DNA of 64,000 bases from Candidatus Heimdallarchaeota archaeon (GTDB taxonomy: Archaea; Asgardarchaeota; Heimdallarchaeia; Hodarchaeales; Hodarchaeaceae): NCBI GenBank assembly GCA_020353515.1, contig CP070695.1:3225532-3289531 (forward strand). The letters run 5' to 3'. Within the stretch, counting starts at the first letter, position 1, and every line of letters starts with the position of its first letter. Positions 22,990-42,051 of this stretch are shown here, one piece after another. The notes under the pieces are model-generated. The model was not told the origin of the DNA and made no database searches. It was given only the letters and a program-made list of their open reading frames with translations. A program made the translations under genes and the position numbers.

Positions 22990-25383
22990 TTGATGCAACT
23001 GACCCATAAGAGAATAGCATTCCCTTTTTCCGCTATCGTTGCGATGGATAAATTAAAATTAGCAACAATAGTAAACGCAATTAATCCTAAAATTGGAGGA
23101 GTGCTAATTCAAGGAGCAAAGGGTTCAGGAAAAACCACAGTTGCTCGTGGATTAACTGATATTCTTCCAGAATTGGAAGTAGTAAAAGGGTGTTCATTCA
23201 ATTGCAACCCTCATGATCTTTCAAATATGTGTGAAACATGTGGTGAAAAATATCGTAAAGGAGAGCAATTTGAAATAGAAGAGAGGGAGATGGCAGTCGT
23301 AGATCTTCCACTGGGAGCAACAGAGGATCGAGTAGTTGGAAGTCTCGATGTAGAAAAAGCAATAAAGCATGGAATAGGAGCATTAGAACCAGGGATCCTT
23401 GCAGAAGCAAACCAGAATATTCTATATGTTGATGAAGTCAATTTGCTACCTGACCATGTAGCTGACGATTTATTAGATGCAGCTGCAACAGGATGGAATG
23501 TGGTTGAGCGTGAAGGAATTTCAGTTCGCCATCCCTCCCGATTCGTATTCATAGGAACCATGAATCCTGAAGAGGGACAACTTAGACCACAACTCTTAGA
23601 TCGCTTCCCTTTGTCTGTAAGTGTTGAAAGAATAATGACTGTTGAAGACAGAATGGAAGTAGTTAAGAGAACCATTGAGTTTGAAGCGAATCCTGAACGT
23701 TTCATCGAAATCTATAAAGAAAGTCAAATAGAATTACGAAATCGAATAATTGCTGCAAGAAAGTTGTTGTCAAAAGTTGAGTTACCTGAAAAGCTCCTTG
23801 AAGTCATTTGCCTTACCTGCTTAGATCTTCAGGTCGATGGGATGAGACCCGATATTGTCATAAGCAAAACAGCACAAACATTAGCAGCATTTGAAAACAG
23901 AAGTGTTGTTACCCCAGATGACATCTTGATTGCTTCAGAACTTACATTAAAACACAGAACTAGAGAGGGAGGTTTTCAGGATCCTGCAACACCAGAAGAA
24001 ATAGCGAAATTATTTGTAGCAAAAGTAAAGCAGGTAAAATACGTCGAACAAATTGAATCTTCAGATACTGACCAAAAAAAAAAGCGGGAAAAACCTAAAG
24101 GCCGAGTCATGATTTGGGCTCCACAAGAAACAACAGAAAAAGAAGAAGATTTGGCTCATAGGAAGAGTAGTAAGACTCGGGCAAGGATTTTTCAATTTTT
24201 TAGCAGGATCGGTCCAAGCTTCGCACTTGGTAAGAGACTGAGGAAAAGTCCTGAAGACTCCCCCGTCATGAATGGTGCTATAAAACAAGCAGAAAATATT
24301 AAAGGTGAGATTTCTGAAGGAGTAGAACGGGGCAAGTTTAAGGGGATTCCCTCTGTCACTTATGCAGTTAAGTCTTCTGATATGAGAAAAGGTAATTCTT
24401 TAATCTCAAGGATAAAAGATAGTATCCTTTCACCATTTAAACCTCCTGATTTTAAAAAAACTCGATTTAAAGGAGTTAGTAGTACTGCTGGAAAACGAGC
24501 GGAGTCGATTACAACTCTCCATCGCGGCCGACCTTGGGGTTGGAAGTTTCCGAAGGGAAAACCATCAGATATTCATTTACCAGCAACAATTAGAGCTGCA
24601 GCTAGACATCAGAATCATCGAGTCCCGTCTCTAGGAACTTCGATTAGTATATCCTTAGAGGATGTCCGAGAAAAGTTAAGAGTATACAAGGCTCCTATGA
24701 CGCTAATCTTTGTCATAGATCTTAGTGGATCTATGATGTTCAATATTGAAGCTAGTAAAGAAGCCCTCCTACGGTTGCATAGAGATGCCTACCGTTATAG
24801 AGATAAAGTAGGTATTGTAGCTCTCAAAGATACAAGAGCTGTTGTTGTTCAACATCCTATCACAAACTTAGGTGTGGTAGCAAACAAGCTATTCGGATTA
24901 AAAATCAGTGGGTTCACTCCTTTGGCAGCGGGTATGTTAAAAGCGCTGGACGTCTTAAAGGAAACTAGACGTCGGGATAGAGCAACTATTCCAGTCATTG
25001 TTATCATTACGGATGGAAACACAAATGTCCCGCTTTATAGAAGTCTAGAGACTGGAGAACTTCGTGATTTCAAAGAGCTAGGAATCGCATTAAGGGAATT
25101 TGAAGATTTAGCCGTTAAGGATGTGGTCTCTGTTTCTAAAGCCATTGAAAGAGAAGGGATCCATACAGTGATTGTTAATACAAACCCTCATTATATTGGA
25201 CGTGAAACTTATGGTTTTGCAGTAACGAAAATCATTACCTCTATAACCAAGGGAAGTCATCACCAAATTAGCAGACTTAGTGACGGCGAAGAGCTTGTCG
25301 AAGACATCTTTGAAGGTATTAGTGAAGACCAAAGAAAAATTTCTGCAGGAGTCCCTTTATCACAACTCAATGTATGGGATTGA
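22990..25383 (+). CDS. chlD: Mg/Co-chelatase subunit D-like protein (ChlI-type AAA+ plus vWA domain)
   Basis: GAKGSGKT Walker [43 protein letters not shown]; DLSGS MIDAS, TPLAAG, ITDG. Confidence 0.9.
24074..24098 (+). other. Putative -1 frameshift / slippage site (A10G; A_AAA_AAG) with -1 frame stop
   Basis: Zero-frame CAA AAA AAA AAG; -1 frame reads AAA GCG GGA AAA ACC TAA (stop 24096-24098). Confidence 0.55.
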
Positions 25384-40455: not shown

Positions 40456-40611
40456 AAGCTCTTCGTTCTTTGCACTAATGTCTTTTATCCATCAACAAGG
40501 GATAATCTTTTTTAATAAATCAACTCATAGTTTGATAACACCTAATAATTTAACCTAATTTGCTAAAAAAAAAAGAAATAGGATTGATGAATTGTCTTAT
40601 GGTGATTTAAT

Positions 40612-42051
40612 ATGAGTACATCTGAATATAGAAAACCTGACATACAAACGGATTTTTCTAGTATGCCAACATGGCTATACTTACTGGTAGTCGTAATTCT
40701 TTATGCTTTTGGAGCATACTCTTTTGTGCACTTTATTTTTGCTCCAGAAAATACTGAGATTCTAGAATCAATCTCAGAGGTCTTTTATCTAGTAATTCCA
40801 GTTACTATGCCTTTCTTACCACTTTTAATCGCTTTTGCTGCAATCTTCTTATTTATTACAATCATTCTAGCATATATTATTGTCTGGATTATGAGTAAAC
40901 TTGCCCAAGAAGTCACAATTATAGTTTGCATTCTTTTTCCCCTATTTATGGTTGCAGTTGGCGCTTTAATCTATTTCTCTGATCCAGAACTTTGGATTCT
41001 CGCTTTATTCATTGCAGGACTTGGGGCTTTGTTCTTTCTTTTTGTCCTTTGGAAATTCACTTTAATTAAACGTTCTGGGCAATTTGTTGAATTTTCTGCT
41101 CAGCTTGTACTGGATGAAAAAGCTGTAATAGCGATGCCTATCTTTTTAGGAATTTATTCTATTATCACAGGTTTTTTTATGCTCTTTGGTTTCTTTGAAA
41201 TTCTTAGCCTTTTTACAGTTGAGAATGCCGCAGGTGACCCTGAGCTCAGTCTTCCTGGTTATGTTTTTGCCATTTTATTCGAATATATTTACCTGATAGT
41301 ATATTTGGGAGTTTACTATAGCCTATCTGCTGGTGTGATCTCGTACGCTAGTGATTGGTATCGAGGCTTAGATCCAGATTTGAATTCTGCGATGAAAGAT
41401 GTTCGGCAAGTATTTCCTATAATCATAAAATTTGCTTTTGCAATGGCAACTGTTAAGATGATTATGCAAATAGCTACATCAGCAGGAAGAAGCCAAACAC
41501 GAGCTACTGATAGACAAGGGGGTGGTGCAATTATTTTTGCGTTTATTGGTGCTGCTGTCGCAGGTTTGTTTATTTCGATCCTTGGTGCGATCTGGATGTT
41601 CATGAATTATTTTACACTAATATCCATCGTACAGAATAAACGAGGATTGACGGATTCGATTAAAGATTCAGCAAAGACGACATGGAATTCATTATTAGAT
41701 GTCTTAGTTGGAGAGTCTGGATTTGGATTGACAACGTTCATTTTTGCTGTCATAAATTCCTTGTTGTGGATCGTGGTTGGATTTGGCCTAGGATTTGCTG
41801 TTAGCCAAGATTTTGGATTTGGTATCATATTTGCTTTCATATTTCTTATTTTAGGAAGCTTACCCTACAATGTTGTTACAATGCCTATGAAAGTAGCCTT
41901 CCGTTCTTTCCTTTATTCCTATGCAAAGGATACTATTGAAGGTTACAAGAAACCAAGTCGTTTACCCACAGAGCTACGCACGGAGTTCAGCACATTAGCC
42001 AGTAAACAAAGAAAAAGACGAGGCCTGAGAGATCCTAATCAATATTTCTGA
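40612..42051 (+). CDS. Multi-pass membrane protein, choline-transporter-like (CTL/SLC44-like) by pattern
   Basis: About 10 TM; IKRSGQFVEFSAQLVLDEKAVIAMP and NYFTLISIVQNKRGLTDSIKDS resemble conserved CTL segments. Confidence 0.55.
   Translation: MSTSEYRKPDIQTDFSSMPTWLYLLVVVILYAFGAYSFVHFIFAPENTEILESISEVFYLVIPVTMPFLPLLIAFAAIFLFITIILAYIIVWIMSKLAQEVTIIVCILFPLFMVAVGALIYFSDPELWILALFIAGLGALFFLFVLWKFTLIKRSGQFVEFSAQLVLDEKAVIAMPIFLGIYSIITGFFMLFGFFEILSLFTVENAAGDPELSLPGYVFAILFEYIYLIVYLGVYYSLSAGVISYASDWYRGLDPDLNSAMKDVRQVFPIIIKFAFAMATVKMIMQIATSAGRSQTRATDRQGGGAIIFAFIGAAVAGLFISILGAIWMFMNYFTLISIVQNKRGLTDSIKDSAKTTWNSLLDVLVGESGFGLTTFIFAVINSLLWIVVGFGLGFAVSQDFGFGIIFAFIFLILGSLPYNVVTMPMKVAFRSFLYSYAKDTIEGYKKPSRLPTELRTEFSTLASKQRKRRGLRDPNQYF

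Follow-up and report, generated by a model that had tools for sequence, protein, structure and literature searches.

Probable production of a short AAA+ ATPase and a long AAA+-VWA protein from one in-frame chlD-like gene with a conserved poly-A run in a Heimdallarchaeota archaeon

The window analyzed here is a stretch of 64,000 nucleotides (nt) from the genome of Candidatus Heimdallarchaeota archaeon (assembly GCA_020353515.1, contig CP070695.1), which is a single contig of 4.94 Mb with 35.8% GC and is 96% complete. The window contains a chlD-like gene that reads as a single open reading frame (ORF), and the domain order of its 796-amino-acid (aa) product is a ChlI-like AAA+ module, a basic linker and a VWA domain. 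A run of ten adenines (A10) lies near the start of the linker. Comparison with related genes suggests that this one gene probably makes two proteins, a short ATPase and a long ATPase-VWA protein, and that it belongs to the recoded chlD-like family as a member whose halves are in frame. Coordinates of all features are given in Table 1.

The domain assignments rest on family models and solved structures. Positions 1–321 of the NCBIfam model TIGR02030 (BchI/ChlI) matched aa 10–330 (E = 5e-116), and the solved ChlI structures 8osf, 6l8d and 1g8p matched aa 5–353 (E = 1e-100, best 8e-102). Pfam matches were to AAA_5, Mg_chelatase and AAA_lid_2 within the first third of the protein and to VWA_2/VWA at aa 571–680, and the integrin-I domain of BchD (chain 2x31_A) matched aa 569–682. 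TIGR02442 ("putative cobaltochelatase") aligned with the whole protein at 611 bits against a cut-off of 779, TIGR02031 scored 361 against a cut-off of 500, and all scores to these two models and to TIGR02030 were under the curated cut-offs.

The A-run starts 9–12 residues past the end of the complete ChlI-homologous module and occupies codons 361–364, counted from the ATG at 22993. In the ORF frame, the sequence is GAC CAA AAA AAA AAG CGG GAA AAA CCT AAA, which places two heptamers in phase, A_AAA_AAA (24075–24081) and A_AAA_AAG (24078–24084). The site thus has what a dnaX-type site has: an A-run of at least nine, or A_AAA_AAG, in phase inside a long ORF, with shifted-frame stops nearby. A sequence-only reading of the window had pointed to CAA AAA AAA AAG, the in-phase A_AAA_AAG and close stops in the −1 and +1 frames. 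All were present in the sequence and its coordinates for the run and the stops were correct, its numbering of codons 362–365 being counted from the TTG at 22990. The TGA at the position equivalent to 24110–24112 closes the zero frame of L004, the out-of-frame sister of the window gene.

Table 1. Features of the chlD-like gene, A-runs of its genus orthologues and the second AAA+/VWA locus. Positions are those of the window unless a genome position is given.
Feature	Position	Strand	Genome (locus)	Run with flanks	Remarks
chlD-like gene	22993..25383	+	G000 (window)		Single 796-aa ORF from ATG 22993; TTG 22990 one codon upstream
ChlI-like AAA+ module	22993..24051	+	G000 (window)		aa 1-353; Walker motif, Walker B LYVDE, 4-Cys insert
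A10 run, proposed slip site	24074..24083	+	G000 (window)	C-AA AAA AAA AA-G	Exactly ten A as assembled
Linker, basic, Lys/Arg-rich	24085..24702	+	G000 (window)		aa 365-570; would be exclusive to long form
-1 frame stop TAA	24096..24098	+	G000 (window)		Frame reads KKKAGKT; would end short product of -1 ribosomal shift or A11 transcript, tail AGKT
+1 frame stop TGA	24110..24112	+	G000 (window)		Would end short product of A9 transcript, tail SGKNLKAES
VWA (integrin-I-like) domain	24703..25032	+	G000 (window)		aa 571-680; MIDAS motif DLSGS; PF13519, 5e-13
Run at site 1 (window's position)			G000 (window)	C-A10-G	In frame
Run at site 1			G139 (L006 = L035, "Hermodarchaeota" MAG)	GAT-A11-G	In frame
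Run at site 1			G136 (L007)	G-A10-G	In frame
Run at site 1			G208 (L204, sequence = L004, "Promethearchaeota" MAG)	GAT-A10-G	Out of frame; 84-87% identical to window
Run at site 1			G206 (L205)	C-A10-C	Out of frame
Run at site 2			G130 (L008)	GTG-A10-GG	Out of frame; site 27 codons downstream of site 1
Run at site 2			G210 (L206)	GT-A11-G	Out of frame
MoxR-like AAA+/VWA locus	G000:C1:2930255-2932047		G000 (L195/L196)		Outside window; A10 at genome position 2931163

A search of the genomes of the genus found an orthologue in seven species, and the junction of each was read. A gene was counted as out of frame when its zero frame stopped within 9–13 codons and its −1 frame ran on into the conserved linker. 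Every orthologue (7/7) carried exactly one run of A10 or A11 where the AAA+ module meets the linker, within the first ~30 linker codons, so that conservation of the A-run, one of the checks named in the sequence-only reading, was found across the genus. Three of these genes were in frame and four needed a −1 shift. In the two species with the run at site 2, G130 and G210, site 1 was interrupted. The residue preceding the run varied (Q, K, E or D) while its length stayed constant at 10–11, which points to selection acting on the nucleotides of the run and not on the peptide. The window gene was colinear with that of G139 but for two substitutions (GAC CAA vs. GAT AAA), and the G208 gene was set apart from the G139 gene by a single A within the run and one additional codon. 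The frame status of the window gene relative to L004 depends in part on a 5-nt difference located upstream of the run. An exact-flank search for assemblies of the same species with A9 or A11 found none.

The rarity of such runs was assessed in the window and across the genome. In the window alone the run was unsurprising, as dinucleotide shuffles gave an expectation of 3.8 A10 runs and two were seen; this comparison proved uninformative, and the statistics of ORFs across the genome were used in its place. The other (40565–40574) is intergenic, lying in short open frames upstream of a gene that starts near 40612, and is no coding slip site. Across the 4.94 Mb there were 57 A or T runs of at least ten, nearly all intergenic or abutting stop codons. 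Among 2,565 long ORFs, which make up 72% of the genome, the run in the chlD-like gene was the sole sense run of at least ten A more than 50 codons from either ORF end. In the same ORFs, Lys-Lys-Lys was written as AAA AAA AAA 26 times against an expectation of 180, a depletion of about sevenfold; 72% of their Lys codons were AAA, and mixed triplets containing AAG were in excess. The genome purges long A-runs from its coding sequence, and the chlD-like gene is the exception. Judging by this avoidance, slipping on A-runs seems to carry a real cost for this archaeon.

A second AAA+/VWA locus of the same genome was picked from the genome-wide list of A10 runs, and its domains and orthologues were checked. 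Its MoxR-like ORF of 306 aa (AAA_5, 6e-20) ends AGA AAA AAA AAA TAG, and the −1 frame runs on as a VWA ORF. The congeners G062, G209 and G208 were split alike (A10, then TGA), and in G210 and G102 the two parts were fused in frame (599 and 624 aa) with the A10 retained. Overall, the A10 was fixed, four species were split and two were fused, and they differed only in phase. The locus resembles the chlD-like gene in that the A10 lies at the AAA+/VWA boundary and congeners are split (−1) or fused. Unlike the chlD-like gene, it belongs to the AAA_5/AAA_3 family and is present in its split version in the window genome.

Elsewhere in the phylum, chlD-like loci whose halves differed by −1 held A9–A11 in the short frame overlap in 11 of 11 cases. 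At chlD-like loci with halves differing by +1, the overlap held TTT TTT CGY followed by GAA or AAA (4/4), and this motif looks like a +1 site at which tRNA-Phe would re-pair from UUU to UUC before the CGY Arg codon. The four belong to other Asgard families (L016:1042-1071, L017:2798-2857, L025:2522-2551 and L027:2516-2560). A gene of Zixibacteria was also split at an A10.

A tree was built from the AAA+ module only, which excluded the columns of the trait itself. The window gene and L004 were sisters (SH-aLRT 99), with G139 next, and carried A10 at the same site with opposite frame status. The seven sequences of the genus formed one clade (SH-aLRT 87), which was nested (94, 96 and 99) in otherwise in-frame, run-less genes, and at least four changes of frame status were required. 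The long run therefore looks like an innovation of the genus, around which frame status would have flipped several times at two sites. Support was moderate and came from a quick search, and we treat this reading of the tree as a lead.

Several known systems share parts of this arrangement. A −1 frameshift cluster that shares a conserved A_AAA_AAR site is made up of "magnesium chelatase" genes from bacteria and from Methanocaldococcus/Methanococcus (PMC3711429; review PMC5009743). In E. coli reporters carrying chlD poly-A sites, shifted product reached 63% with A11, 40% with A9 and 10% with A7 (PMC3711429). The order of ChlI-like AAA+, linker and VWA in this frameshifted chlD (fs-chlD) family is that of the window gene, its poly-A/A_AAA_AAR slip site lies at the same boundary as the A10, and one gene stands in place of a chlI and chlD pair, as in the window genome. 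L004 is a textbook member, and the halves of the G206, G130 and G210 genes are likewise in different frames. The difference lies in the default product: in fs-chlD the halves are in different frames and the shift yields the long product, whereas in the window gene they are in frame and a slip would yield the short one. A 2020 study by Antonov in Molecular Biology and Evolution (MBE) reportedly also treats frameshifted chlD genes. Kuznetsov et al. (2022) proposed horizontal transfer of an ancient frameshifted chlD gene (PMC9227772). In the genus of the window, however, frameshifted and in-frame genes were intermixed on the tree and the break occurred at two sites, and we take it as a lead that this clade behaves otherwise than those authors describe.

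The dnaX gene is a parallel for an in-frame gene with a short second product. E. coli dnaX uses a −1 ribosomal shift on A_AAA_AAG, Thermus thermophilus dnaX makes its short subunit from an in-frame gene by transcriptional slippage on A9, and in other bacteria dnaX consists of two ORFs and has an A10 (PMC3711429). Like the window gene, the gene for tau and gamma is a long in-frame ORF for an AAA+ protein with an A-run just past the ATPase module. Its truncated subunit has the same N-terminus and enters the same complex, and by analogy we propose the same for the window gene. It differs in belonging to an unrelated family, the clamp loader, and in E. coli it has a downstream stem-loop and an upstream Shine-Dalgarno-like stimulator; no such structure was supported in the window gene. 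In the BchI/BchD (ChlI/ChlD) system (1g8p, 2x31, 6l8d and 8osf), the AAA+ module of the window protein aligns to ChlI and its VWA domain to BchD. Unlike in that system, the long form has a fully ChlI-like N-terminal ATPase, which carries a 4-Cys insert, and neither a ChlH/CobN partner nor a porphyrin pathway was found in the window genome.

From these comparisons we infer the following course of expression. Standard decoding of the A10 template would yield the 796-aa AAA+-linker-VWA protein, and a substantial share of expression events would slip on the A-run. Either RNA polymerase would produce A11 or A9 transcripts or the ribosome would shift by −1 on A_AAA_AAA/A_AAA_AAG. Shifted translation would stop 4 to 9 codons on and release a ChlI-like AAA+ ATPase of ~368–376 aa with the same N-terminus; ChlI chains measure 350–380 aa. 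On the model of BchI/BchD, the two forms would join in a mixed AAA+ ring with VWA arms that bind a client. Slippage would be a property of the run and not of the frame relation between the halves, so that an in-frame A10 would be expected to send a comparable share of events into the shifted frames. Should the slip rate be close to one half, a swapped frame relation is predicted only to swap the default product, which would explain the presence of both arrangements in sister species. The sequence-only reading had proposed the long form as default and a ChlI-sized form by slippage, and the comparison favors this proposal, since the runs of the genus occur in frame or at −1 and the sister gene is out of frame.

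The same reading had invoked a dnaX-type mechanism with a weak downstream hairpin. The in-phase A_AAA_AAG is consistent with such a mechanism, and the hairpin (CCGAGU/AUUUGG), which starts 17 nt after the heptamer, is part of the minimum-energy fold. Its stability was no better than that of shuffled sequences (z −0.17 to −0.35), within chance, and we rejected it as a stimulator of slippage. Poly-A tracts are prone to slip in transcription as well as in translation and replication (PMC3711429), and transcriptional slippage fits runs of A9–A11 at least as well as dnaX-type ribosomal shifting does. A large transcriptional share is favored because the runs are uniformly of at least nine although seven suffices for the heptamer, because downstream structure is not above that of shuffles, and because a gene for tRNA-Lys(CUU) is present in an incomplete scan. 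In that scan, made with aragorn and yielding 15 tRNAs, tRNA-Lys(CUU) was the sole Lys tRNA.

Some of these observations weigh against production of two proteins from the in-frame gene. One is the hairpin result; another is that tRNA-Lys(CUU), as far as the incomplete scan goes, in principle disfavors dnaX-style slippage on AAG. Archaeal RNA polymerase and ribosomes of this lineage are not known to slip on poly-A. Beyond the genus, A10 or longer occurred in the linker of none of 88 in-frame orthologues (8 genome and 80 metagenome loci, 50–72% identity, mostly Bathyarchaeia-type). Four of these had A9 (one at site 1, three at site 2) and the rest A3–A8, and KKK was unconserved at the protein level. 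Conservation of the run among in-frame genes therefore did not extend past the genus, and the short form is no general need of in-frame genes of the chlD-like family. Because the run was not conserved in these orthologues, the in-frame slippage strategy, as far as such comparison can tell, is lineage-specific.

Three other explanations of the run were weighed. The sequence-only reading had itself allowed that Lys runs can arise by chance in an AT-rich genome; on this view a Lys patch in the basic linker merely happens to be written with AAA codons at 36% GC. The share of AAA among Lys codons and the shuffle expectation for the window agree with this, and alternative frames close fast in any AT-rich sequence. 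We nevertheless regard chance as highly improbable: no other such run was found inside the 2,565 long ORFs, AAA AAA AAA was depleted, the run was kept in all seven congeners at one of two sites, and the frame breaks of relatives coincide with runs. A run that is a tolerated relic, inherited from or en route to a frameshifted state, with slippage as noise and only the long protein of consequence, is unlikely, although it deserves more weight than chance. In-frame orthologues beyond the genus manage without a long run, the long protein, with its ATPase module intact, could form rings by itself, and frame status flips often within the genus, all as a relic would have it. However, the three in-frame species (72–78% identity) retain A10 or A11 despite changed flanking codons, every other long ORF of the genome has been purged of such runs, and one synonymous AAG would cure a costly loss of ~50% of product.

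The remaining explanation acts at the level of DNA and appears somewhat less likely than a relic. Either the run length was mis-called, in which case the gene would in truth be a split, frameshifted chlD, or replication slippage makes the run a contingency locus that switches the population between mostly long and mostly short product (phase variation). Long-read assemblies are prone to errors at homopolymers, and the present genome consists of one contig of 4.94 Mb; poly-A tracts slip in replication too (PMC3711429), and split G208 and fused G139 differ by one A in the run. On the other hand, the frame of the window gene relative to L004 depends also on the 5-nt upstream difference and not on run length alone, and the colinearity with G139, broken by two substitutions only, also speaks against a DNA-level effect. 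The split state was found in four independent assemblies in four sequence contexts, and the MoxR-VWA locus keeps its A10 in split and fused species with the phase alone differing.

Production of two proteins through slippage may extend past this gene. We tentatively suggest, at somewhat less than even odds, that poly-A slippage of ~50% is a general device of Hodarchaeales-type Asgard archaea, used at chlD-like and MoxR-like loci to make AAA+-only and AAA+-VWA proteins. The frame relation would then be nearly neutral and flip repeatedly, and frameshifted chlD genes would arise de novo and repeatedly from in-frame genes with a run, not only by horizontal transfer.

The function of the proteins was considered from the gene content of the genome. 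Searches of the 96%-complete single-contig genome gave no CobN/ChlH (PF02514), HemB (PF00490), HemC (PF01379) or CbiX (PF01903), and control genomes were positive in the HemB, HemC and CbiX searches. In two other Asgard families with chlD-like genes, CobN was likewise not found (0 of 43 genomes in one, 0 of 19 in the other). The earlier remark that the window lacks a separate chlI held there and across the genome, where TIGR02030 gave a strong match to the chlD-like gene only. Its description of the products as chelatase subunits gained no support as a statement of function, and judged by gene content "chelatase subunit" is a family resemblance and not a function. Tetrapyrrole synthesis seems to be beyond this organism; the ChlI/ChlD-type protein would therefore have to do something else, and its client is presumably not the large subunit of a tetrapyrrole chelatase, because the genome has none. 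The fs-chlD family occurs also in genomes without the large subunit or a tetrapyrrole pathway, and "stage 1" genomes with ChlI and ChlD but no large subunit, in which the authors call the function unknown, have been described (PMC9227772). The window genome matches this stage in having a ChlI/ChlD-type protein without a large subunit. Together, these observations point to a non-chelatase role for this ChlI/ChlD-type motor.

Two products from one chlD gene have already been published, and it is not the mechanism that is new but its in-frame variant. What is added is a dnaX-like, in-frame version of chlD whose proposed slip site is kept across a genus, and the apparent interconversion of in-frame and split versions between sister species around a fixed A10/A11. 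From this interconversion a slippage rate of close to one half is predicted, and it argues for a frameshifted state that can arise by local evolution. The case comes from the archaea most closely related to eukaryotes, and its genome yielded neither a chelatase large subunit nor a porphyrin pathway. Experimental tests of recoding in archaea are scarce (PMC8211752), and the chlD-like gene is a simple candidate for doing so. For annotation, split copies of the family should be joined and in-frame copies flagged as likely to encode two products.

Standalone ChlI-sized genes (L207-L211 and L216) occurred in the congeners G207, G204, G119, G211, G193 and G130, as open frames of 343–422 aa that were 47–51% identical to the AAA+ module of the window protein. 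No co-oriented VWA gene lay beside them, and with the query used the chlD-like VWA half went unmatched in five of these six genomes. Within the AAA+ module, four cysteines (C67, C71, C80 and C83, as CxxxC...CxxC; window 23191-23241) were invariant in 26 orthologues of 60–78% identity, and the insert that carries them may bind metal. PF26791 was among the precomputed domains of all orthologues. The chlD-like gene is monocistronic and lies between minus-strand genes, which encode a GNAT-SCP2 acetyltransferase and a beta-helix/NosD surface protein.

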